Shown: one piece after another, positions 5,723 to 20,000 of the stretch
Layout of the letters: each line of letters opens with the position of its first letter
Position numbering within the stretch: position 1 is the first letter of the stretch
Source of the DNA: an uncultured virus (IMG/VR IMGVR_UViG_3300034104_001787)
Taxonomy: Duplodnaviria > Heunggongvirae > Uroviricota > Caudoviricetes
Length of the DNA: 20,000 nt
Virus record (IMG/VR): IMGVR_UViG_3300034104_001787
Direction: 5' to 3' (one strand)
Notes under the pieces: model-generated
Seen by the model: the letters and a program-made list of their open reading frames with translations, nothing else
Told to the model about the DNA's origin: nothing
The model's database searches: none
Made by a program: the position numbers and the translations under genes

Positions 5723-6492
5723 TAAACCACCAACGACGGCTCCAATCCCATCTCTTCGACAAACCAGTTACTCAAGTCAGCGTGACGCCTCACATACTCA
5801 GAAGGAACAGAACGCTTCAAAGCTTCTGTAGCGTTGTTGTATAGCTGCCAAGCGGTGCCCTTTAACTCCTGAATATCCTGCGACCTATTCTCCAACATAG
5901 CAAAGTCCTTGTTGGTAGCAATAGATTCAAGGAAAGAAGACATCATATGGGGCGACAGCAGGTTCTTCAGGTAGGCATCACCTACGAATGTAGAAGCTAC
6001 ATCATAGTTGACTTCGATCTGCTGCAACTGTTCAGCCAGTTTCATAGCACGGTTGTATTCGCTATCCATCTCTTCGATAATATCCATGATATTACAAGTG
6101 AGATCTTCGTTGACAGAACCGCTATGCTTACGGCGGTAGGTCTGATTCTCTGAGAGGAACACACCGTTACTACATACACGAACCATAGCACCCGCAGTAA
6201 ACGTAACCTTCTTGGTCTTGTTGTAGCTGTTGAGGAACGCTACACTACGGTGCATAGGGCTGTTGTAATCTGAAGGCTTAGAGACTCGCATCACACCAAG
6301 GCAGACCTGACCATTCAAAGCAAGGCTATACTGCTCAGCTTCGATATTAAATCCAGCGGCATTGAGGTTGCCTGTAATAGCTTGGTGAAGAGAGCGATTA
6401 CTTACAGGACGGTAATAGTTCGTTGCTTGTGGAACTGGTACACTAAAGATCACTTCTGGATCACTGGTACGGAGGATTGATTTCGTACTCAT
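5722..6492 (-). CDS. DUF932/DUF945-like protein
   Basis: YRPVSN, FLNSYNKT...AGAMVRVCSNG, RKHSG and TAWQLYNNATEAL match the family pattern (NS.d...G.fr.vC.NG; t.W.lyNa.TE). Confidence 0.7.
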   Translation of the reverse strand: MSTKSILRTSDPEVIFSVPVPQATNYYRPVSNRSLHQAITGNLNAAGFNIEAEQYSLALNGQVCLGVMRVSKPSDYNSPMHRSVAFLNSYNKTKKVTFTAGAMVRVCSNGVFLSENQTYRRKHSGSVNEDLTCNIMDIIEEMDSEYNRAMKLAEQLQQIEVNYDVASTFVGDAYLKNLLSPHMMSSFLESIATNKDFAMLENRSQDIQELKGTAWQLYNNATEALKRSVPSEYVRRHADLSNWFVEEMGLEPSLVV

Positions 6493-6698
6493 TTCTCTTT
6501 CTTTAAAAGGTTTAGAACAGTTGTAATGCTTTTTATTTGAGACATAATTAAAAGTTTTCCTTCTTCACTGATTTGTTCTTCTGAATCAAGAAAATCTTTT
6601 AAGTCTTGCTGATGAGTGGCCCAGTAGCCGTATCTCTCCTCTAAAGTTAAGGAATAATAGGGTACGTGAGCGCGTTTTTTAGGATGTGATAGACTCAT
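6489..6698 (-). CDS. Hypothetical protein (69 aa)
   Basis: ATGA overlaps with both neighbours, consistent with translational coupling. Confidence 0.7.
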   Translation of the reverse strand: MSLSHPKKRAHVPYYSLTLEERYGYWATHQQDLKDFLDSEEQISEEGKLLIMSQIKSITTVLNLLKKEK

Positions 6699-8572
6699 TT
6701 ACTCCAATGTTGTGTGATGTTGACTTCTGCTTTAAGTAAGTCATTCTTAATAACATAGCGTGCTGCTTCTTCCATAAGATCTTGCAGAATCTGTTTCCAT
6801 TCTTCTGCGTGGTCGGGATGGCAAATCGTGTCTATCTGGTCGTGTACAGCGAGGACAAGCTTGGCTGGATAGTTATTCTTTTTGATATAGTTATATACCA
6901 AAACCATTGCGTGCTTAGTCATATCAGCTGCGGTACCTTGGATAGGGGTATTCTTTGCCTGACGTTCAATCTTACCTCGGATAGCCATAGGCATATTGTA
7001 GGGTTCCCAATCTGGGAACCACCTCTTACGTGAATAAGGAGGGAAGGTTTCTATATATCCTCTCTTGATAGCAGACTTGGACATATTATCCAAGAACTTC
7101 TTGATAGATGGAAACGCTTTGAAGTATTTGTCGATGAGTTCAGAGGCTTCCTCCATAGGAATTTCCATCTGCTCCGATAACTTCTTAGGCCCCATACCAT
7201 ACGCCAAGCCGAAGTTGATTCCCTTTACCACGTTACGTAACTGCTTATGTCTCTTGCAGTTACACTTGATTCTATACTTTACAAAGTCGCAGTCCTCTTC
7301 TGCAGAGTCCACCCATTCCTGACCAAAGACCAACTCGCCACATACAGAGTGCAAATCTTGCCCCTTACTAAGTGCCGAAAGGAATACAGGATCCTGTGAA
7401 CCATAAGCGATAATACATAGCTCCTGAGAAGAATAATCACCAGACACAAATACCCACTCGCTCCCAGAAGTAAAACAATTTCGATAGGTGTTATCAGAAG
7501 GTATCTGCTGAAGGTTAGGCTCCCTACACGAAGCACGGCCTGTAGATACCATCTGAACAAAGTTGGGATGGATCTTCCCGTCAGAATATATATGCTCTAA
7601 AAACGACGTACCAAACGAACTGGCTTTCTTGCTCTTCTCCCTATAGTCCTGAAGGATAGATGCCAACTTATGCTTCCTCTTTAGCTTGTGCAATACCTGA
7701 TCCGAAGTAGCAAGTATCTTCCTATCTATACACTGGAAGATCTGCAACGTAGTAGAGGTACTATTCCAGTTGTACCTATGAGTGCCCATAACATTCTCAG
7801 AAGAGAACATATCAAGCTGTATAGCCGTAGGACGTACAGATTCAAACAAAGGGTCTGTAGCCACTATCTCATTCATCTCAATCTCTATATCCTTTGCCTC
7901 TTGCTCTATGATAGCAACCTGCTTCTTCCACTGTTCTACATCTAACGTGATACCATTGTATTCCATCTCCGTAAAAGCAAGTACAGACGCATTCTCTAAC
8001 ATAGCCAAGAGAGATAGATTACTCTCTTGCATAGCCTCCATCTGCTGGTGCATGATATGTGGCAAATACGCTATGTCTAATGCGGCATAACTGAGTTGCT
8101 GAGATGATAGTGTACTATTAGGTTTGAACGATGTCTGTGCTTGTTTGCTGAGAGACACGTTACAGTATCGCTGTACTACGGCTTTGAGGTTATTGCGTAC
8201 GTTGGTACCTGCTGTGAGTATCTGTTCACATATGAAGGTATCGTACACTTGGTTGGGTTGAAGGCCTTGCTTGATGAGGAACTTGAGGTCGAACTTGAGG
8301 TTGTGTCCTACGAGGATTTTGGCGTTGTTGAGTAGCTTGATAAGGGCATCGACCCTACGCTGATCGTTATCTATGACGAAGATGTACTGGTTGGAATCGT
8401 TATGAGATACCTGTACTGTTACTATAGAATCTTGTAGGAAGTTGAGGCCAGTAGTTTCTATGTCGATATAGAGGATAGATGCTTTGGATAGTTCTTCGTA
8501 GGCTGTTATGAATGATATGGGTTGGAATTGTGTCTCGTCAGGAGTTTCAGTTCTACCGATAATATAAATCAT
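6695..8572 (-). CDS. polA: Family A DNA polymerase (3'-5' exonuclease plus polymerase; no 5'-3' exonuclease)
   Basis: ExoI YIDIETTG, ExoII GHNLKFD, ExoIII YAALD; TGRASCREPNLQQIP; motif A DYSSQEL; motif B RNVVKGINFGLAYG; NTPIQGTAAD; motif C VHDQI. Likely start ATG 8572, because the upstream extension runs through a hairpin. Confidence 0.96.
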   Translation of the reverse strand: MIYIIGRTETPDETQFQPISFITAYEELSKASILYIDIETTGLNFLQDSIVTVQVSHNDSNQYIFVIDNDQRRVDALIKLLNNAKILVGHNLKFDLKFLIKQGLQPNQVYDTFICEQILTAGTNVRNNLKAVVQRYCNVSLSKQAQTSFKPNSTLSSQQLSYAALDIAYLPHIMHQQMEAMQESNLSLLAMLENASVLAFTEMEYNGITLDVEQWKKQVAIIEQEAKDIEIEMNEIVATDPLFESVRPTAIQLDMFSSENVMGTHRYNWNSTSTTLQIFQCIDRKILATSDQVLHKLKRKHKLASILQDYREKSKKASSFGTSFLEHIYSDGKIHPNFVQMVSTGRASCREPNLQQIPSDNTYRNCFTSGSEWVFVSGDYSSQELCIIAYGSQDPVFLSALSKGQDLHSVCGELVFGQEWVDSAEEDCDFVKYRIKCNCKRHKQLRNVVKGINFGLAYGMGPKKLSEQMEIPMEEASELIDKYFKAFPSIKKFLDNMSKSAIKRGYIETFPPYSRKRWFPDWEPYNMPMAIRGKIERQAKNTPIQGTAADMTKHAMVLVYNYIKKNNYPAKLVLAVHDQIDTICHPDHAEEWKQILQDLMEEAARYVIKNDLLKAEVNITQHWSK

Positions 8573-12149: not shown

Positions 12150-12429
12150 TCGTATCCTCGTTATACAATACACTTGCTTTTACCAAGTGTGTCTCAGCAT
12201 ACATCTCACAGAGAAAGCACATACTGAATGATGGGTGGTCGGTGATGACTTCGTACACCACGTGGATATTTCCATTGGGGAAGTAGCAATCTGCCATACG
12301 GTTATTCCGTTTAAGAAATAACTTCACCTTGTACGCTTCATCGTCAGTAAGTGCAGAGTAATCATCATTGATTATAGCTGAAAGGAAATATCCAGCTATA
12401 GGGAAGGTGTTGATTTCAAAGTGTTTCAT
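12130..12429 (-). CDS. Conserved-looking phage hypothetical protein
   Basis: AIINDDYSALTDDE resembles a small phage/plasmid family (aliNgD.SgL.deE); C-terminal CxxC; ATGA overlap with the FISUMP gene. Confidence 0.65.
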   Translation of the reverse strand: MKHFEINTFPIAGYFLSAIINDDYSALTDDEAYKVKLFLKRNNRMADCYFPNGNIHVVYEVITDHPSFSMCFLCEMYAETHLVKASVLYNEDTNEPPNE

Positions 12430-12950
12430 AACTGATCTTTAATTAAACGAACAGAGAAACCGTAGGTAGTATGGTAGTCATCCCGGTTTATACCTGAGTC
12501 AGAATCTGTTAGGTAGTAGCTCCATGAATATGCACCATTTGGAGTGGAAGACCAGAAGTATCCGATGATTTCACTATGGAAACTTCCAGAACGACAACGG
12601 TACCCACCTGCGATTGCATTGAATCCTGACTTTCGTGTGCCATCCCACTTTTTGGTTGACTTCAAATAGCCACCTGCTTTATGAAAATCTCCGCAGAACC
12701 TAACGAGTTGAAGCCACTGCATATCTGTAGGTACGTGGAATCCTTCGGGAGCAAGTCCTCGAGGATCGTCGATAGCATACCAGTTGTAGTAACATTCTCC
12801 GCTATCGGGATTGATACACATAGCGGCTTCTTGAAGGACAGCCCAATCATCTGGGTCTTGTACGATTGGAATAGGATCTCCATTGCGAAACTTGAATACA
12901 CGGAGATTCTTTGTAGTCCACACCTGTGAACCAATCTGAATAGTTTTCAT
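12426..12950 (-). CDS. Fibrobacter succinogenes major paralogous (FISUMP / Fib_succ_major) domain protein
   Basis: TIQIGSQVWTTKNL, FRNGDPIP, YYNWYAI..PRGLAPEGFHVPT..QW, GFNAIAGGYR, GYFWSST and GFSVRLIKD cover the full family pattern; no signal peptide. Confidence 0.88.
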   Translation of the reverse strand: MKTIQIGSQVWTTKNLRVFKFRNGDPIPIVQDPDDWAVLQEAAMCINPDSGECYYNWYAIDDPRGLAPEGFHVPTDMQWLQLVRFCGDFHKAGGYLKSTKKWDGTRKSGFNAIAGGYRCRSGSFHSEIIGYFWSSTPNGAYSWSYYLTDSDSGINRDDYHTTYGFSVRLIKDQL

Positions 12951-12986
12951 AGCGTTGAATGTGTTACTGGGTGAAGAGGGAAAGAA

Positions 12987-13014
12987 AAGCAGTTTATAGA
13001 CATGCTTAGGTCTA
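12987..13014 (-). ncRNA. Compact H-type pseudoknot in the leader of the FISUMP gene
   Basis: Minus strand UAGAC-CU-AAGCA-U-GUCUA-UAAAC-UGCUU: stem 1 UAGAC/GUCUA and stem 2 AAGCA/UGCUU, all Watson-Crick; intergenic. Confidence 0.55.
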
Positions 13015-13019
13015 AACGA

Positions 13020-13175
13020 TTAGACTAACTCACACTTGCTTGTGTAGATGTTAGTCTTGATGGTGTAGTTAATACCATCAATTTTCCAAACCATCTTGTA
13101 ATCCCCGTCTTGTTTTGGGGATGACTGCCCGACAAACTCTTTGTTGGGACAGTCAATGACTTGTTGTATTGTCAT
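13020..13175 (-). CDS. Hypothetical microprotein (51 aa)
   Basis: Not in the track: MTIQQVIDCPNKEFVGQSSPKQDGDYKMVWKIDGINYTIKTNIYTSKCELV; TGATG overlap with the upstream gene. Confidence 0.65.
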   Translation of the reverse strand: MTIQQVIDCPNKEFVGQSSPKQDGDYKMVWKIDGINYTIKTNIYTSKCELV

Positions 13176-13426
13176 CAGTACGTCCAAGAGCAGGCAGCCG
13201 GTCGGTGTTGGAAGAAGGCACGACGGTTAGCATTGCTGCGGTGCTTACGGATGTAATAACGGTCGCGGTAAGAGGATTGGTTCCAGATAGCAGGATGCTT
13301 GGGACCACGGAGTTGGCTGTAACGCTTGAGTGTATAAACTCGCGTTGCACCACCCGTCCGGTAAATCGACTGAGCCTCACCCACCGTAGAGAGAGAGACA
13401 ACCAAGAGGAAAAGGAAGATACGCAT
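13175..13426 (-). CDS. Small secreted basic protein with a Sec signal peptide
   Basis: Likely start ATG 13426: MRIFLFLLVVSLSTVGEA|QSIY...; Arg/Tyr-rich mature part. Confidence 0.6.
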   Translation of the reverse strand: MRIFLFLLVVSLSTVGEAQSIYRTGGATRVYTLKRYSQLRGPKHPAIWNQSSYRDRYYIRKHRSNANRRAFFQHRPAACSWTY

Positions 13427-13461
13427 GTTAAACGATGCTGATAGGGTTAGAGAAAAACTAA

Positions 13462-13497
13462 AAGCCAAATAGTAAGTGGTGTCTTACTATCTGGCTT
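13462..13497 (-). terminator. Intrinsic terminator
   Basis: Minus strand AAGCCAGAUAGUAAG-ACACCA-CUUACUAUUUGGCUU followed by UUAGUUUUUCUCU; the G-U pair sets the strand. Confidence 0.7.
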
Positions 13498-13504
13498 GTA
13501 GATA

Positions 13505-13600
13505 TTATTTCTTCGCAGCTTTTCTAAACTTGAAGAAGTAAAAACCAATTAAAGCTACCTCCACAGAGGCAGTGAGCAGAAAGAAATCGAAATGTTCCAT
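13505..13600 (-). CDS. 31-aa single-pass membrane peptide
   Basis: Not in the track: MEHFDFFLLTASVEVALIGFYFFKFRKAAKK (hydrophobic core plus basic tail); terminator immediately downstream. Confidence 0.6.
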   Translation of the reverse strand: MEHFDFFLLTASVEVALIGFYFFKFRKAAKK

Positions 13601-13624
13601 TTGATTTAGGAATCGTTGATGATG

Positions 13625-13900
13625 TTAAGACGTTTTAATTACCAGATGATAAGAGCCAGTTTCTGTATGGCCTGTAGAGAGGAGAGAGAAGGGAAAGAGT
13701 CCAAGTAGCTCAAGGGTAGCTACGAGGTTGGACTCTTCTTGCCCGTCACAGAGATATACTATGTTGGAGAGGTCGATGTCATATTCGGAGGATCGATTTA
13801 GCTCAGCTAAACAAATCAGGATCTCTTTCTTTACTATGTTGTAAGAACAGTAGTACTCCTTGGAAGAAGAGATTAAGGCAGGATTACAATAAGTCGCCAT
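13625..13900 (-). CDS. Hypothetical protein
   Basis: Packed minus-strand ORF; ATG 13900 preferred over TTG 13915. Confidence 0.55.
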   Translation of the reverse strand: MATYCNPALISSSKEYYCSYNIVKKEILICLAELNRSSEYDIDLSNIVYLCDGQEESNLVATLELLGLFPFSLLSTGHTETGSYHLVIKTS

Positions 13901-14069
13901 AGGTAACAGAGTCAAACTCGATACCCAAATCCAGCTTGTCTAAACGAGAACCACACAGCACATCCTCAAACGAGATACGACCTCCCGATAAGCGAGAATA
14001 TACATAAGAGTCAAAACAAGTATCTCCTCCCATATGGAGAAGAGTAGAGTGAGAAAGAAACTGCTTCAT
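13884..14069 (-). CDS. Hypothetical protein (61 aa)
   Basis: Minus-strand ORF overlapping the next gene, with a pyrimidine-rich leader. Confidence 0.5.
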   Translation of the reverse strand: MKQFLSHSTLLHMGGDTCFDSYVYSRLSGGRISFEDVLCGSRLDKLDLGIEFDSVTYGDLL

Positions 14070-14102
14070 AACAGTAAGAGATAAAGAGAGTGATACTAAG
14101 AG

Positions 14103-14198
14103 TCAATTAGACCTACGCTCCATAATAGCAAGGATGGTTAAACCACCTAATACATACCCTATGATAAGGGCATAAACACAGATAACATAAGTGTCCAT
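14103..14198 (-). CDS. 31-aa single-pass membrane peptide
   Basis: Not in the track: MDTYVICVYALIIGYVLGGLTILAIMERRSN; A-rich leader without SD. Confidence 0.55.
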   Translation of the reverse strand: MDTYVICVYALIIGYVLGGLTILAIMERRSN

Positions 14199-14238
14199 AG
14201 TAATTACGTTTTGATTACTGATACAAAAGAGGAAATTT

Positions 14239-14461
14239 GATCTACTCAGGAATGGTAGATCTGTAGATATATAACCTTGTATTTTTGAAGATTAAGTATA
14301 TATCTATGTCGTCGTTCTGATTACAGGATGATAGTGTAAAGTAAAAGATTACACTACGTATACCTGCAACGCAATAACCTGCACACAGTCAACAAGTTAC
14401 GTTGCTAAGTAGGTAGCATAGGATTGTGGCCTACGCTACCTACTTTCGCAAACGATTTGCG
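14239..14461. repeat. Array of seven back-to-back inverted repeats
   Basis: gatctac/gtagatc; tagatatata/tatatatcta; tcgttctg/caggatga (G-U); tagtgtaa/ttacacta; gcaacg/cgttgc; aagtaggtagc/gctacctactt; cgcaaa/tttgcg. Confidence 0.6.
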
Positions 14462-14465
14462 GACG

Positions 14466-14783
14466 TTATGCGAGGGAATGCCAGTGTTTGGCGTTACCCT
14501 CTTTGTCCGTTACAGGAACCAGCTTCTTGCCGTCCTGTCGCTGCACCAGATCGTCGGACTTAACCAGCTCAATAGCTGCGTCCATATCGATACCGTGCTC
14601 TGCGCCGAACTGCTGTACAGACTCATAGCCAGAGTCCCGATAGGTATCCGTTACCTTCAGGCCCAGCAATCGCGCAGTAATCGCAGGCACACGCACCCAT
14701 TGTGGCGCTTCACCTGCAGCAAACACTTGTCCAACCAGCGTACCAGTAGCCGACACGGACACAGGAACAAAGAGACGTTTCAT
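14466..14783 (-). CDS. First gene of the leftward arm; hypothetical protein (105 aa)
   Basis: Likely start ATG 14783 (MKRLFVPV); visibly more GC-rich than its neighbours; followed by the hairpin array. Confidence 0.65.
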   Translation of the reverse strand: MKRLFVPVSVSATGTLVGQVFAAGEAPQWVRVPAITARLLGLKVTDTYRDSGYESVQQFGAEHGIDMDAAIELVKSDDLVQRQDGKKLVPVTDKEGNAKHWHSLA

Positions 14784-14832
14784 GAGGAAAACGGTGTTAG
14801 AGCAAGCAGCGACATTGCCGCTTGCCAAGACC

Positions 14833-14961
14833 GGGGAGTCGTCATTGGGGGGTATTCGTCCTTAGTGCCCTACCGGGGGAGGGTATATGGGGGTGCTACT
14901 CACAAGTCTCCCCATATGGTATACTGGGCGGGGGTTCTTTACAGGGCTAAGAGAAGGGGGG
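14833..14961 (+). other. G-tract-rich non-coding divergence region (candidate pac site, genome end or origin)
   Basis: Nine G-runs of 3-6 nt on the + strand in about 130 bp, between the divergent gene arms and upstream of the terminase cluster. Confidence 0.5.
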
Positions 14962-14965
14962 TTGT

Positions 14966-14973
14966 TATATTTG
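14966..14973 (+). promoter_or_regulatory. Bacteroidota housekeeping-sigma -7 element (TAnnTTTG)
   Basis: TATATTTG followed by only 4 nt before ATG 14978; no clear -33 element. Confidence 0.6.
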
Positions 14974-14977
14974 CGGT

Positions 14978-15217
14978 ATGGGATATTACAAAGACATCCG
15001 CATACGTCAGCGGATAGATGATTACTTACGGATTAATGCTGCTATACAGGCGAACCTTGGCACGAAGAGTAAGTTTGATATAGGCAGTAGAAGAGATGCC
15101 AAGACGATATGGATACAGTTACTAAGGGAGATTAGTTTATTGGATAAGGAATACTATCGGACGTTGGCATCTCCCAAGGAGCAGGAGTTGGTAAGTGCCT
15201 TAGATATTGGTAGTTGA
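14978..15217 (+). CDS. Hypothetical protein (79 aa), first gene of the rightward arm
   Basis: Helical ORF directly after a -7 promoter element. Confidence 0.7.
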   Translation: MGYYKDIRIRQRIDDYLRINAAIQANLGTKSKFDIGSRRDAKTIWIQLLREISLLDKEYYRTLASPKEQELVSALDIGS

Positions 15218-15236
15218 GGATATATGAATATATTTG
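15207..15236 (+). promoter_or_regulatory. Bacteroidota sigma promoter (-33 TTG, 19-nt spacer, -7 TATATTTG)
   Basis: TTG 15207-15209, spacer 15210-15228, TATATTTG 15229-15236, then an AT-rich leader without SD to ATG 15256. Confidence 0.7.
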
Positions 15237-15255
15237 AACTTTAAATAATAATATT

Positions 15256-15576
15256 ATGGAAGTAGTAACGCCGGGTGTAGAGTATAAGCTACACAATTTT
15301 AAATCGGAGAATGACTATCAGGTAATACGTTTTACGGAGAAGACGGCCTTGGGGTATAACGGGGGGACTACGAACGAGGAGGTTATTACTATGTTGATAG
15401 ATAGGATGTATGAGTTACAGAAGAAGAACTTCTCTGTAGAGAATCAGTGTATTATTATATTGTTGAAGAATATCAGGGTTCTCTTGAAGAAGAGGTTAGT
15501 AAAGAAGATTGACAGAGTAAGCAAATACGAGGGAAGCAATGGTACTAAATATAGCGACGAGTCCGAGGCTTCATAA
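15256..15576 (+). CDS. Tad1/Acb2-like protein (candidate immune-signal sponge), divergent
   Basis: EYKL...QVIRF...GTTNEEVITMLIDRM..LQ...FS.EN.C...KKR...IDR parallels the Tad1 pattern as recalled (EYVI...TIKF...G....LLEIVRDRL..FQ..PFSSRENAC...NRR..RIER). Confidence 0.6.
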   Translation: MEVVTPGVEYKLHNFKSENDYQVIRFTEKTALGYNGGTTNEEVITMLIDRMYELQKKNFSVENQCIIILLKNIRVLLKKRLVKKIDRVSKYEGSNGTKYSDESEAS

Positions 15577-15865
15577 GAGGCACTATCTGGAGTTGATGAA
15601 TGGGATATTGAAGTTGACTCCGAGGGAATTGGATTGTTTGTTATTGTTTATGGCTTTCGACCCTGAGGTAGCTTGTAGTACGGAGGCGAGGATCTCTGTA
15701 AGTAGGGAGATGAATTTCAGGAGTGTAGCTGTGATCAATAATTATGTGAAGAGTTTGAAGGATAAGGGGGTTATTATTTTGGGAGACGATGGTTTATATA
15801 GGTACAATTCGATAATACACGCACCTCCTATAGTAGATGATATTATATTCAGGTTTGTCATCTAA
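15539..15865 (+). CDS. Winged-HTH protein (RepL/MarR-like) of the crAss pre-terminase cluster
   Basis: LKLTPRELDCL...RISVSREMNF.SVAVINNYVKSLKDKGVII...GLYRYN wHTH pattern. Confidence 0.7.
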   Translation: MVLNIATSPRLHKRHYLELMNGILKLTPRELDCLLLFMAFDPEVACSTEARISVSREMNFRSVAVINNYVKSLKDKGVIILGDDGLYRYNSIIHAPPIVDDIIFRFVI

Positions 15866-16058
15866 CCGACCCAGCCATTATTTGGTATATGAGTTTGATG
15901 ATATAGGGGTGTTGATGGAGTTTGAGTTTGTGGTGTCTGTAAGGTTGGAGGAGATGGGGATTGTATACTATACGGAGATTTATATCGGACAATATGTTTA
16001 TCAATTAATGTTTGTGTTGTATGCCAAGAAAGAACTCGATAAAAGCGAAGATTTGTAA
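15837..16058 (+). CDS. Hypothetical protein (73 aa)
   Basis: Fills the gap between the HTH and IHF-like genes on the operon strand. Confidence 0.55.
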   Translation: MILYSGLSSNRPSHYLVYEFDDIGVLMEFEFVVSVRLEEMGIVYYTEIYIGQYVYQLMFVLYAKKELDKSEDL

Positions 16059-16296
16059 GGAGATTGCAAATGATTTGGGAGCGCATCCCGATGAGGTGCT
16101 TAGCATTGTGGAATCACAATTTGAGCATTTGAAGATGCATATGGAAGAAGGGGCTTTGACCAGTGTACGTCTTCCGTACTTTGGGAAGTTCTATGTTAAA
16201 CCGGGAAGGATATCACAGTTAAATTATGGGATTATTCAGAGAAGAAAACTTCAGGGTAATAGTGGACCCTCAGATACTCCTGATAGCGGAGTTTAA
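16021..16296 (+). CDS. IHF/HU-like DNA-binding protein
   Basis: ICKEIANDLG...VLSIVESQF...SVRLPYFGKFYVK histone-like fold motif; an IHF-like gene upstream of TerL is a crAss hallmark; ATG 16021. Confidence 0.8.
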   Translation: MPRKNSIKAKICKEIANDLGAHPDEVLSIVESQFEHLKMHMEEGALTSVRLPYFGKFYVKPGRISQLNYGIIQRRKLQGNSGPSDTPDSGV

Positions 16297-16786
16297 GTCG
16301 CTATATAGGAGAGACAGGACCAAAGAGAAGATAGTAGCTCCTAAGGAGTTTGGATATATCTACTTCGTTTATGATCACCGCAGCCCTTATATCATATATC
16401 CTGTGGAGGAGAGGACGACGCGGGTCAAGGCCGACTTGAAGTTGGTGGATTGGGAGGTGGATTCTTATGTCAAGGCAGCTATAGACAAGTACCTTGAGAT
16501 GAGTTCTACCCCCGAGGTAAAGACCCTTACGTCTATACGGGAAGGCCTGCTTACCTCCAGCAAGGTAATCGACACGTTACGTATCCGTATCGAAGATGCC
16601 CTCAAAGACGTAGATATGGAGGACATCGACCCCATTGTACGAAGCGTACAGCGTATGTTGGAGATAGCAGAGAAGCTTCCCAAAGCCATAGACAACATCT
16701 CTACGTTAGAGGATAAGATCAAGCGTCAGGAAACTACCGACACCAAGATCCGAGGAGGAGGTAAGAAGGGACAATTTGAAGATTGA
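16226..16786 (+). CDS. Conserved crAss-like protein upstream of TerL; putative terminase small subunit
   Basis: DRTKEK...EFGYIYFVYDHRSPY, long helical C-terminal half and KIRGG...FED tail; immediately precedes TerL. Confidence 0.6.
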   Translation: MGLFREENFRVIVDPQILLIAEFKSLYRRDRTKEKIVAPKEFGYIYFVYDHRSPYIIYPVEERTTRVKADLKLVDWEVDSYVKAAIDKYLEMSSTPEVKTLTSIREGLLTSSKVIDTLRIRIEDALKDVDMEDIDPIVRSVQRMLEIAEKLPKAIDNISTLEDKIKRQETTDTKIRGGGKKGQFED

Positions 16787-16787
16787 T

Positions 16788-18806
16788 ATGTTAGTCAATA
16801 CCCAAGAGTTTAGAAGAGATGCCCTGCACTTCCTTGAGCACGGCTTCTACTGCCCTGACCCTCCGGGAAGTTCTGCTCATTACGAGTATTGGACTACTCA
16901 GTTAGATAGGTGTATCAATGGCTACGAGGTCGGTGGTACTCGTATCACAGGGCACCACTACTTCTACCTCAACTTCGTACGAATAAAGCTCACAGAAGAC
17001 GCTGGTAAAGCTCAAAGCAAAGTGCTTACCTTTCCCTCGTTTTGGGATGGGGACTATGAGTTCTTCTGGCTGCTCGATATCGCTCGCAAAGGCATTGCGA
17101 AAGACGAGTATGAAAAGCTACGTCTTACGACCACTGTCGCAGATGGATTTATGGATGGAGGAAGGCACCTCATCGTAGGTAAGGCAAGACGTAAAGGATT
17201 TAGCTACAAGAACGCCGCGTTAGTAACCAACACCTTCAATACCGTAAGGAACAGTTATTCGCTGCTCTGTGCCTTCGACAAGAAGTACCTATACCCAAAA
17301 GGTATTATGGCGATGGTTACAGACAATATGAACTTCTTGAACGAGCATACGGGCTGGACTAAGAGAAGGCAGTTAACTGACAAGCAAAACCACCGTAAGG
17401 CAAGCTACTTAGAGTATATGGGAGGGCAACCCGTAGAGAAGGGATATAAGAGCGAAGTAGAAGCCCTTACGTTCCTTGACAACCCCGACGCTGCCAGAGG
17501 TAAAGATGCCAATATCGTGATCTTTGAGGAGTGTGGTGTATTCGACAACCTCAAGTCCTCCTATCTCGCTACCCAGCCGTGTGTGGAAGACGGTGATGTC
17601 GTTACTGGGCAGATCATCTTGTTTGGTACTGGTGGCGATATGACCGGAGGAACTATCGACTTCGAGTCTATGTTCTATAACCCGGAGGCATATAACCTGC
17701 TTCCTATAACCAACATCTGGGATGAAGGCTCACAACATCAGAATTGCGGCTTCTTCTTCCCTTGCTACCTTAATAAAGTTGGCTATATGGATTCATCGGG
17801 GAATAGCAACGTGGAGAAAGCCAAACAGTCGGAACTGGCTATACGGGAGCAGAAGCGTAGAGATTCTAAGGATGCTGGCGTACTTGACAAGTATGTGACG
17901 GAATACCCTTTCTGTCCCAAAGAGGCGTTTATGCAACAAAGCTCTAACCTCTTCCCATCTGCTATGATCTTGGACTGGAGAAACGAGATACTCAAGTCCG
18001 GATCTCTTGCAAATATTGCAACGGTTGGTAGGTTAGTAGACAGTAAGGAGGGGGTTAAGTTTAGGCCGGAACCTAACTTACGGGCTATCAGTAAGTTCCC
18101 TCACCAAAAGGGCGACGACTTGACTGGGGCTGTTGTAATCTACCAGTCACCTTACAAAGAAAACGACCAGATACCCGATGACCTGTACATCATTGCACAC
18201 GACCCCTATGCACAAGATGGGTATGGGCAATCGTTGGGTGCAGCGTATGTTATAAAACGCATAAATCCGTTCAGTAAACCGGATGATATGATCGTTGCCA
18301 GCTATATAGGAAGACCTGATACGCAGGATGAATACAATTATAACCTATTTTTGCTTGCAGAATACTATAATGCCCGTATCGGCTTTGAAAACGATAGGGG
18401 AGAAGTAATACCTTACGCTAAGAGAAACAGGTTACTTCAGTATTTAATGCCCGAAGTAGAAATTTTTGATAAGACGGACAACATCAAAATCAAAAAGTTA
18501 GGGCGTAGCTACGGTATGAGTATGGGAAGTAGAGAAAGAAAGGGCCAAGCGGAGATCTATTTGCGAGATTGGTTAAAGACACCACGCGCAATATCTCAAA
18601 CTGGCGAGAAGAAATGCAATCTTCATTATATATATGATGTAGCTTTGCTTGATGAGTTAATAAAATACAATAGAAGTGGAAACTTTGACCGTGTGTCAGC
18701 TATGATGGTGGGTATGTTCCACCTAAAAGAGTTGCACAACAGAGAATTGACTATAACAGAACAGACAAACAGCTCAAACTTTTTTGACCGCAACTTCTTT
18801 TCATAA
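16788..18806 (+). CDS. terL: Terminase large subunit (crAss-like)
   Basis: ITGHHYFYLNF, Walker A GKARRKGFS, Walker B VIFEECG, motif III FGTGG, RNase H-like nuclease IIAHDPY, FENDRG and GNFDRVSA; ATG 16788; no intron or intein evident. Confidence 0.96.
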   Translation: MLVNTQEFRRDALHFLEHGFYCPDPPGSSAHYEYWTTQLDRCINGYEVGGTRITGHHYFYLNFVRIKLTEDAGKAQSKVLTFPSFWDGDYEFFWLLDIARKGIAKDEYEKLRLTTTVADGFMDGGRHLIVGKARRKGFSYKNAALVTNTFNTVRNSYSLLCAFDKKYLYPKGIMAMVTDNMNFLNEHTGWTKRRQLTDKQNHRKASYLEYMGGQPVEKGYKSEVEALTFLDNPDAARGKDANIVIFEECGVFDNLKSSYLATQPCVEDGDVVTGQIILFGTGGDMTGGTIDFESMFYNPEAYNLLPITNIWDEGSQHQNCGFFFPCYLNKVGYMDSSGNSNVEKAKQSELAIREQKRRDSKDAGVLDKYVTEYPFCPKEAFMQQSSNLFPSAMILDWRNEILKSGSLANIATVGRLVDSKEGVKFRPEPNLRAISKFPHQKGDDLTGAVVIYQSPYKENDQIPDDLYIIAHDPYAQDGYGQSLGAAYVIKRINPFSKPDDMIVASYIGRPDTQDEYNYNLFLLAEYYNARIGFENDRGEVIPYAKRNRLLQYLMPEVEIFDKTDNIKIKKLGRSYGMSMGSRERKGQAEIYLRDWLKTPRAISQTGEKKCNLHYIYDVALLDELIKYNRSGNFDRVSAMMVGMFHLKELHNRELTITEQTNSSNFFDRNFFS

Positions 18807-18814
18807 AGTTACTG

Positions 18815-20000
18815 ATGTTTCAAATACCAAAACAAAAACTTCCCCGGTCTAAAAAGACCAAAAAATGGGGAGAGGAATGTATAAAGGCGTTTATCAATAG
18901 AAGTTCATTCAGCACTTCTACCAAGCATACCCTCCAGACGTATTACGAGGCCTATAACGGCAACTTAAAGGAGTCCGACTACAACTATGTCGTCAACCCT
19001 TATAATAGTGAATCTTGGGCCAAGAAAAACTTCCCAGCCCGACTCCGCAACTACAACATCATTAAGCCCGTTGTGGATCTTATGCTTGGCGAAAAGGCAA
19101 AACGTCCTGTAGCATACCAAGTAGTAGTGCGTAATGCAGACATCCAAACCCGTTTTGACGCATACCGCAAGGAGAAGTACAAAGAATACCTTGAGCAGAC
19201 CTTTATCAATGAGATGAACAAGGGAGGTATGGAGACAAACATACCTTCTGAGGAACAAGCTGCACCGGATGAGTATATGAGCATGGTTCTCTCTAACTAC
19301 AGAGACTCTCGTGCTATCGTAGGTCAGGAGGTATTGAACTATTTGTTTGATTGGTTGTCGTTAGAGGATAAGTTCCAGCTGGGATTCTTGGATTGGTTGG
19401 TTACTGGAGAGGTTTATACCTACAAGGATGTGTTGATGAATGATATCGAGTACGATATCGTTAGCCCGTTAGACCTTGACTTTGAAAAATCCCCAGACGT
19501 AGAGTTTATCGAAGACGCGGATTGGGTTGTACGTCGTAAGATAATGAGTATCAACGATGTAATTGACAAGTTCTACGATGTCCTTACTCCACAAGATATA
19601 GATAGGTTAGAGCAGCCCTCTGGAAAGTACCGGGATGGCTATGGTGGAGTACAATCTCTCTTTATCAATAAGCCTGAAGACGACGAGAGCGATCGTATGG
19701 TCGAGGTGCTTCACGTTTGTTGGAAGAGTTTTTCTCGTGTAGGTATCTTGAAGTATACCGACGAGTTTGGCAACCCACAGGAGATGGTTGTTGATGAGAC
19801 CCACAAGGCAGAAGAGAACGAAACGGTTGAGTTCTATTGGGTAAACGAGGTGTGGGAAGGATATCAGATTGACGGAGATATCTATGTGAACTTCGGCCCC
19901 CATAAAGTCCAGCGTAATCAGATGAATAATATCTCTGACTGCAAGCTGCCCTATAACGGACGTATCTACAGCAATCGCCATAGCGATAACATCAGCGTTG
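18815..20000 (+). CDS. Portal protein (partial, continues past the window)
   Basis: Not in the track because there is no stop in the window: MFQIPKQKLPRSKKTKKW...YNG...YNYVVNPY...PARLRNYNIIKPVVDLMLGEKAKRP, a typical crAss portal N-terminus; follows TerL. Confidence 0.92.
   Translation, partial: MFQIPKQKLPRSKKTKKWGEECIKAFINRSSFSTSTKHTLQTYYEAYNGNLKESDYNYVVNPYNSESWAKKNFPARLRNYNIIKPVVDLMLGEKAKRPVAYQVVVRNADIQTRFDAYRKEKYKEYLEQTFINEMNKGGMETNIPSEEQAAPDEYMSMVLSNYRDSRAIVGQEVLNYLFDWLSLEDKFQLGFLDWLVTGEVYTYKDVLMNDIEYDIVSPLDLDFEKSPDVEFIEDADWVVRRKIMSINDVIDKFYDVLTPQDIDRLEQPSGKYRDGYGGVQSLFINKPEDDESDRMVEVLHVCWKSFSRVGILKYTDEFGNPQEMVVDETHKAEENETVEFYWVNEVWEGYQIDGDIYVNFGPHKVQRNQMNNISDCKLPYNGRIYSNRHSDNISV

Follow-up and report, generated by a model that had tools for sequence, protein, structure and literature searches.

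Tad1 is a phage protein that soaks up bacterial alarm molecules. Of two earlier studies, that of Leavitt et al. (10.1101/2022.05.03.490397) described the roles of the residues of the gcADPR pocket in CbTad1, which is sealed by G55 and R57 of the β4-α1 loop; that of Li et al. (10.1101/2023.11.15.567273) described the cyclic-trinucleotide site of CbTad1 and CmTad1 and the residues of the CmTad1 hexamer interface. Hadary et al. (2025) (10.1101/2025.08.24.671296; PMC12393519) gathered Tad1 homologs from IMG/VR by HHpred and already list the clade analysed here: their Table S1 ('homologs_Tad1') contains 66 occurrences of FSVENQ and 66 of FSAENQ, and its contigs include loci L009, L041, L030, L034 and L064 of the present set. 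The classification of these proteins as Tad1 homologs is thus in print and not new here. A literature text search did not find Tad1 together with Crassvirales, and the co-occurrences of Tad1 and 'crAss' among the matches listed were unrelated (Crassostrea, fungal names), so that the crAss-like link, the core synteny and the derived anatomy appear undiscussed in searchable text. Here we describe these for a Tad1-family gene in a 20,000-nt stretch of DNA (the window) from the uncultured virus IMGVR_UViG_3300034104_001787; its anatomy, synteny and conservation are our additions to the published classification.

The 106-residue Tad1-family protein

The initial annotation of the window, made from the sequence alone, had proposed a 106-residue ORF carrying a series of motifs, and both the ORF and every motif quoted were found on the plus strand at the position given in Table 1: E9-Y10-x-L12, V23-I24-R25-F26, GTTNEEVITMLIDR (residues 37-50), F59-S60-x-E62-N63-Q64-C65 and K78-K79-R80, followed four residues on by I85-D86-R87. 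Using a word-indexed search, 33 relatives of this protein were obtained at E ≤ 0.01, with 55-99% identity, and an exhaustive search with the 106-residue protein returned 108 cluster representatives at E ≤ 1e-3. Comparison with the nearest relative having an unsaturated dS (locus L004) gave a dN/dS of 0.15. These relatives and this ratio establish that the ORF is a genuine gene and exclude a chance ORF. The evolutionary pace of the gene was about as slow as that of the large terminase subunit (TerL), since at the same seven loci its dN was 0.09-0.41 vs. 0.13-0.32 for TerL. Among 51 distinct clade proteins, 15 positions were invariant and the reading frame was unbroken in every one. Across related loci the identity to the window copy was 55-88% for the Tad1-like protein (near-identical copies aside), tracking that of TerL (62-84%), and fell to 30-61% and 40-63% for the two proteins encoded next downstream, a putative winged-HTH protein of 108 residues (HTH108) and an HU-like protein, respectively. 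When positions 14900-16900 (blastn) and the 106-residue protein (tblastn) were searched against 50,697 phage records, no protein match was obtained at E ≤ 1, so a close homolog is absent from every cultured or deposited phage among those records. Near-identical DNA was present in lake and freshwater metagenomes from 11 further studies, and no RNA dataset was among the sequencing runs listed with such DNA. The record nearest to the window, G001, is a fragment of 12.4 kb that lacks the gene. A maximum-likelihood tree of 100 relatives had low resolution, with 6 of its 97 branches starred, and served only for choosing representatives.

Scanned singly against Pfam, the 106-residue sequence gave no match to PF24729 (Acb2_Tad1_hairpin) at E ≤ 1; a sub-threshold match to ACP53EA (E 0.01) was dismissed as chance, and phrog_2428 was matched weakly (E 1e-4). 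A family profile was then built from the alignment of the 100 relatives. Against PDB sequences, this profile matched CmTad1 (8kbb) at E 2.7e-12 and CbTad1 (7uav, 8kbe, 8kbg and 8kbh) at E ~3e-8, with the next chain at E 0.004 and the remainder above 0.6; individually, 12 of the 100 family members also matched PF24729, the best at 3.6e-8. The profile check that the initial annotation had proposed therefore recovered Tad1, and on this evidence the 106-residue protein is homologous to Tad1. An AlphaFold2 (AF2) monomer model based on the 100-relative alignment reached a pLDDT of 92.2, with strands at residues 2-5, 9-13, 21-26, 28-30 and 33-35, helices at 40-57 and 61-95 and a low-confidence tail thereafter, so that the complete Tad1 fold is predicted, in which an antiparallel sheet at the N-terminus precedes a hairpin of two helices. 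The best Foldseek and VIA matches to the model were Tad1, and only Tad1 chains matched over the full length. The original label, 'Tad1/Acb2-like sponge', is thus supported in part: the similarity to Tad1 was borne out by both the profile and the structural comparison.

Pocket residues mapped onto CbTad1 and CmTad1

Residues were mapped by HMMER sequence alignment rather than by a superposed complex, with the roles taken from the two structural studies (10.1101/2022.05.03.490397 and 10.1101/2023.11.15.567273). The register of SVENQCIIILLKNIRVLLKKRLVKKIDR against CbTad1 given in the initial annotation was the same as that of the HMMER profile alignment. In the gcADPR/cyclic-dinucleotide pocket, the adenine-stacking residues F82 and R109 of CbTad1 correspond to L54 and R80 of the window protein, the Hoogsteen-edge reader N92 to N63, the second phosphate arginine R113 to K84, and the ribose contacts F87 and R78 to F59 and R50. 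Four of these (R50, F59, N63 and R80) are identical to their CbTad1 counterparts, and L54 and K84 are conservative replacements. Throughout the 51 distinct clade proteins R50, N63, R80 and K84 were each constant (51/51), L54 was present in 50, and position 59 was always aromatic (45 F and 6 W). The adenine and phosphate contacts of this pocket are therefore, by the alignment mapping, kept and fixed or nearly so across the clade. Since the invariant residues align to the nucleotide contacts of Tad1, they point to a small-molecule ligand.

The remaining elements were altered. At the cyclic-trinucleotide site on the three-fold axis, R90 and T97 of CbTad1 (R88 and T95 of CmTad1) are replaced by V61 and I68; in the 51 clade proteins position 61 was A, V, S or T and never basic, and position 68 was L or I and never Thr. 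This site of Tad1 is, as judged from the aligned residues, gone in the clade (Arg to Val/Ala, Thr to Ile/Leu). Tad1 forms a homo-hexamer (a trimer of dimers), and the polar EExxMW motif of its interface reads KNxxVL in the clade. Of the CmTad1 interface residues, the polar K96, Q98 and E99 correspond to L69, K71 and N72, and the hydrophobic set M102, W103 and K106 to V75, L76 and K79, which indicates that the polar contacts are changed and the hydrophobic ones similar. The hydrophobic run of helix 2 (C65 to L70 and I73 to L77) suggests that this face may still be buried in an oligomer. The β4-α1 loop falls ~9 residues short of that of classic relatives and carries no Arg; in place of the C-terminal R-x-VEG lid there is RVSKYEG, within a predicted helix that continues helix 2. 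CbTad1 H29 falls outside the aligned region. With the loop shortened and the lid replaced, 5 of the 11 CbTad1 contacts (H29, G55 and R57 of the β2-β3 and β4-α1 loops, G120 and N122 of the C-terminal tail), which are the pocket-closing elements that read the ribose-ribose linkage, have no clear counterpart.

The initial annotation had stated that EEA.MW was replaced by KNI.VL, that the Arg before EN was lost, and that EN and two Arg were kept. The alignment bears out each of these points (CbTad1 R90 to V61; N63 and R80 retained, with R50 likewise identical to CbTad1), and that structural guess is correct in detail. Collectively, as mapped here, strong constraint has kept the floor of the dinucleotide/gcADPR pocket in place; the linkage-specificity elements, the second pocket and the polar hexamer contacts are all changed.

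Gene order and the promoter-like site upstream of the terminase

The window is a portion of a crAss-like phage genome. Using tblastn, its TerL had matches in 160 deposited phage records, none of which reached 60% identity; Flavobacterium phage FpV4 was the best (40.4%), and the further matches included many Crassvirales, among them crAss001 and Carjivirus communis. The features of the rightward block and its upstream region are collected in Table 1.

Table 1. Position, strand and supporting evidence of the features around the Tad1-family gene (window coordinates)
Feature	Position	Strand	Evidence
m120, 120-aa ORF	14466-14828	-	no Pfam family
Divergent intergenic region between leftward m120 and rightward block	14829..14977	.	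ORF map
orf79, first gene of rightward block	14978..15217	+	no Pfam/PHROG match
Bacteroidota-type promoter-like site (TTG, 19 nt, TAtaTTTG)	15207..15236	+	sequence
Tad1-family gene, 106 aa	15256..15576	+	ATG-started ORF, family profile, AF2 model, Foldseek/VIA matches
HTH108, putative winged-HTH protein, 108 aa	15539..15865	+	sub-threshold Pfam only
HU/IHF-like DNA-binding protein, 94 aa	16012..16296	+	Bac_DNA_binding, E 2.3e-5, 25.0 bits (cut-off 22.4)
p186, 186-aa conserved protein just upstream of TerL	16226..16786	+	phrog_16390 (unknown function), E 6e-7
Large terminase subunit (TerL), crAss-like type	16776..18806	+	tblastn
Portal gene, runs off window	18815..19999	+	position after TerL as in annotated references; conserved in related loci

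Counterparts of orf79 (29-84% identity, tblastn) lay directly upstream in most related loci. The start of HTH108 overlaps the 3′ end of the Tad1-like ORF by 38 nt, and its Pfam matches all remained below threshold (LexA_DNA_bind 0.028, Trans_reg_C 0.062 and HTH_11 0.19). No Pfam family above the cut-off was found for p186, which the initial annotation had named TerS and which is at most a candidate for that role, and none at E ≤ 0.001 for the portal gene. The order of the block was compared in two sets of IMG/VR loci, one selected with the gene itself (the best 80 of 203 loci) and the other with the TerL of a distant clade member (the best 80 of 151). The Tad1-like gene was followed by HTH108 and the HU/IHF-like gene in 80 of 80 gene-selected loci, 79 of which ran on to p186 and TerL; in the remaining one the contig ended earlier. 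Among the TerL-selected loci, a family member was present on the strand of TerL in all 48 that had at least 2300 nt upstream, with the Tad1-like ORF ending 1228-2466 nt before TerL. The proposed placement beside the HTH, IHF and terminase genes was thus confirmed in both sets (80/80 and 48/48).

This regularity did not extend to the reference Crassvirales. In the whole records of FpV4, cr125_1 (L082), crAss001, Carjivirus communis and the Azobacteroides phage, the family profile, searched with no positive control, matched none of the five, and in their TerL-proximal loci it again matched 0/5 by hmmsearch --max, a search in which the window itself scored 7e-44. Because the five references lack it, the Tad1-like gene is core to the aquatic clade and not to Crassvirales; the synteny that the initial annotation had proposed to trace across Crassvirales is strict within the clade (80/80 and 48/48), and the gene is absent from these five references. 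In crAss001 (L083, record positions 6439-7436), the 109-residue hypothetical protein Gp12 precedes the HTH regulator Gp13 and the HU protein Gp14 upstream of TerL. Gp12 occupies the slot of the Tad1-like gene and has no similarity to the family, and the small gene in the slot before the HTH and HU genes may vary from one crAss lineage to another. It was also considered whether HTH108 could be an Aca-like autoregulator controlling an anti-defence operon; this was rejected as the main reading because crAss001 has the same HTH-then-HU order before TerL yet no Tad1-like gene.

Classic-type Tad1 genes were observed upstream of TerL, on its strand, at L212:5001-5309 (with CREN, ITKLEESLMW and R-N-VEGK) and L181:242-457. 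The TerL proteins of these two loci are only 27-29% identical to that of the window. In the distant crAss-like locus L212 the immediate neighbours of the classic-type gene are a GroES-like gene on one side and, on the other, a p186-like gene that precedes TerL, and this location hints that classic Tad1 occupied the pre-TerL spot before the derived form arose. The pre-terminase position is suggested to be an old or recurrent Tad1 site in crAss-like phages.

The gene had also been credited with its own host-sigma promoter. A TTG at 15207-15209 is separated by a 19-nt spacer from TAtaTTTG at 15229-15236, and the ATG follows 20 nt further downstream. The motif TAnnTTTG alone proves little, since it is no commoner in the window than expected by chance (11 observed vs. 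13.7 ± 4.1 simulated), and a sigma-70-type scan was uninformative (5 sites vs. 7.6 expected). Of 50 distinct upstream sequences of relatives, 12 had the strict motif at 15-45 nt from the ATG, 44 had TAnnTTT before the ATG, and 37 had the TATATTT core at 15-50 nt from it, the last vs. 0 of 50 in an intragenic control of the same size. This conservation argues that a host-type -7-like box directly precedes the Tad1-like gene. The promoter claim is therefore upheld as to a candidate site with a conserved core, and the strict motif as such stands at chance frequency in the window. As no plus-strand terminator-like site was found between orf79 and the Tad1-like ORF, read-through from the first promoter region of the block is also possible; a further TAnnTTTG, at 14966, lies in the divergent intergenic region 12 nt before the ATG of orf79. 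In crAss001 (PMC8375218), temporal modules follow ORF orientation, the onset of late transcription is at 30-60 min, and the corresponding block belongs to the late class.

An AT palindrome, ATATAT-ga-ATATAT, overlaps the promoter-like site. Short inverted repeats were seen over the -7-like box (window 15220-15236) and at the same place in L040, L079, L073, L031 and L064, and their arms vary between subclades yet are complementary (ATATAGAA/TTCTATAT, TATAGAA/TTCTATA, TATATAA/TTATATA and ATATAG/CTATAT). They could be a candidate operator, perhaps for the downstream winged-HTH protein; the signal was judged too weak for this assignment, with a mean best perfect arm of 5.8 vs. 4.8 in shuffles and arms of at least 7 in 17% vs. 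8%.

In the left part of the window, genes pointing leftward encode a family-A DNA polymerase, a helicase and small accessory proteins. The m120 stretch has 52-56% GC, with much of its surroundings near 40%, and the ORF is kept at the same place in L004-L006 (40% identity, E 5e-25); m120 may have been gained recently, as an accessory gene, where the two modules meet. Further to the left, 12426-12950 (-) encodes a phage protein that matches Fib_succ_major (PF09603, E 4e-31) over the full domain; the name of this Pfam family derives from Fibrobacter succinogenes. A strong terminator-like hairpin with a 15-pair stem and a T-rich tail lies at 13462-13497 (-), adjoining a stretch of 51-55% GC (13100-13400) whose ORFs had no homolog in related loci. 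An Rfam scan of 12900-15300 together with a tRNA scan found nothing, including at the hairpin and the high-GC stretch (13100-13497).

Possible functions and comparison with known systems

A close homolog of the window protein has been assayed. In Hadary et al. (PMC12393519), item 55 of Table S2 is a 103-residue clade member tested as 'Tad1', and by-eye comparison showed that its sequence is the product of L028:373-681. This homolog is identical to the window protein at 72 of 102 positions (71%), with all pocket-mapped residues the same, and it lies in the standard synteny. In that source, all seven strains were transformed with the item 55 constructs. No liquid collapse was recorded for type I, type II or type IV Thoeris, for CBASS (3′3′-cUA), CBASS (3′3′-cGAMP) or Pycsar (cUMP), and plaque validation was not done for any of these; with Pycsar (cCMP) liquid collapse was recorded and plaque validation failed. 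With no substantive difference from the window protein, the L028 homolog thus provides an experimental stand-in without validated inhibition in the seven systems. The same source reports that 19 of the 84 sponges assayed inhibited none of the seven, for which its authors suggested untested CBASS variants or the signals of undiscovered systems.

The initial annotation had offered two readings, a sponge of altered specificity or a sponge fold co-opted for packaging or late regulation. Replacement of the specificity elements stood up. We consider it somewhat more probable than otherwise that the protein is a Tad1-derived sponge with changed ligand specificity, encoded by a clade-wide core gene of aquatic crAss-like phages. 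Under such a mechanism the protein would form a homo-oligomer whose interfaces create pockets, and in these pockets the signal of a host defence system, a nucleotide containing adenine, would be sequestered. The ligand would differ from those of classic Tad1, the trinucleotide site, the EExxMW motif, the loop and the lid all being altered. Transcription from the host-type promoter would coincide with that of the packaging genes or shortly precede it, so that the sponge would be present while late proteins accumulate. Counted against this are the L028 homolog, which has the same pocket residues and no validated inhibition of seven systems, and the five CbTad1 contacts that have no clear counterpart. 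Strict synteny and TerL-like conservation, unlike the varied settings of the classic relatives, would also fit a housekeeping role.

Such a role would follow if the Tad1 fold had been exapted, with no immune function, to serve the late or packaging programme; the protein might then be a regulator that binds nucleotides, for instance, or interact with the HTH, HU-like or terminase proteins. Exaptation would explain why the gene is core and fixed in place (same position and strand in 80/80 of the gene-selected loci, the best 80 of 203, and in 48/48 TerL-selected loci), and it accords with a dN similar to that of TerL, with the 38-nt overlap of the 3′ end with the next gene, with the loss of the cyclic-trinucleotide site, the hexamer motif and the lids, and with the inactivity of the L028 homolog against the seven defence systems. 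The invariant residues, however, align with the positions at which Tad1 contacts its nucleotide, and the five reference Crassvirales package their DNA without a Tad1-like gene; we consider exaptation rather unlikely, although it deserves to be taken seriously. That ordinary Tad1 activity towards 3′cADPR or a cyclic dinucleotide is simply kept, the negative outcome in B. subtilis and E. coli reflecting poor expression, folding or dosage, appears improbable. Six core pocket residues are indeed kept or conservatively replaced, no per-homolog protein-level check of inactive sponges was found in the accessible part of PMC12393519, and the source phage is crAss-like, ~40% GC and remote from the test hosts; but the gcADPR-closing loop (R57 and G55) and tail (G120 and N122) are shortened or replaced in every aligned clade member, and seven successful transformations yielded no validated inhibition. 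A decaying sponge remnant with no present function is strongly disfavoured and would be a real surprise: several family hallmarks are lost and the L028 homolog has no validated activity, but the dN/dS of 0.15, the 15 invariant positions with an intact frame in 51 proteins and the presence of the gene in 48/48 TerL-selected loci all oppose decay.

As a narrower form of the sponge with changed specificity, the clade may sponge an undescribed immune nucleotide of a defence system of aquatic Bacteroidota, perhaps triggered by phage late proteins; we offer this tentatively, as a possibility on the unlikely side. Triggering by the phage's own late proteins would explain why the gene is an obligatory core member of the late operon and not an accessory that moves about. 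Were this true, the purified protein could be used as bait for isolating the signal and finding the defence system. Sponges have served as such discovery handles before, since according to Hadary et al. (PMC12393519) Tad1 was crucial for 3′cADPR and 2′cADPR and MoTad2 for His-ADPR. One of the 19 orphans of that study is placed here in a coherent clade, which makes a well-defined candidate for ligand fishing. It is also a possible case of an anti-defence gene turned conserved phage backbone at the head of the packaging and structural block; if exapted, it would be a non-immune use of the sponge fold.

Among named systems, Acb2 (T4 Vs.4, PDB 7UQ2) gave a structural match that stopped short of the N-terminal sheet of the model and was no better than that of many unrelated helical hairpins, and no Acb2 chain was in the Foldseek list. 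One family member, P0119 (241 residues), has a Tad1-like hairpin (PF24729, E 5e-8) fused to a NUDIX hydrolase (E 4.7e-8); this fusion would possibly couple a sponge domain with a nucleotide-cleaving enzyme. The nearest known systems are CbTad1 (PDB 7UAV, 7UAW, 8KBE and 8SMD) and CmTad1 (8KBB-8KBD), at ~20% sequence identity. Relative to these, the window protein lacks ~20 residues at the N-terminus and in the β4-α1 loop, it reads KNIRVL where CbTad1 has EEALMW, and it has a longer helix instead of the R-G-VEG-T tail of Tad1.

The classic GTTNEEV-type Tad1 proteins (phrog_2428; P0064, L160:5001-5306 and L212:5001-5309) are 36-40% identical to the window protein. In most sampled loci of other phages, the neighbours of this type (P0064 branch) were genes for a DNA methyltransferase, a pyrophosphatase, an exonuclease, a helicase-primase and replication proteins; a crAss-like TerL was nearby in 4 of 80 loci and lay downstream on the same strand in two of them (L181 and L212). 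The classic type alone has C-R-E-N...I-T-K-L-E-E-S-L-M-W...R-N-V-E-G-K and the longer β4-α1 loop, whereas M-x-x-x-x-x-G-x-x-Y-x-L-x-x-F, F-x-E-K, GTTNEE, LI-x-R and E-N are common to the classic type and the window protein.
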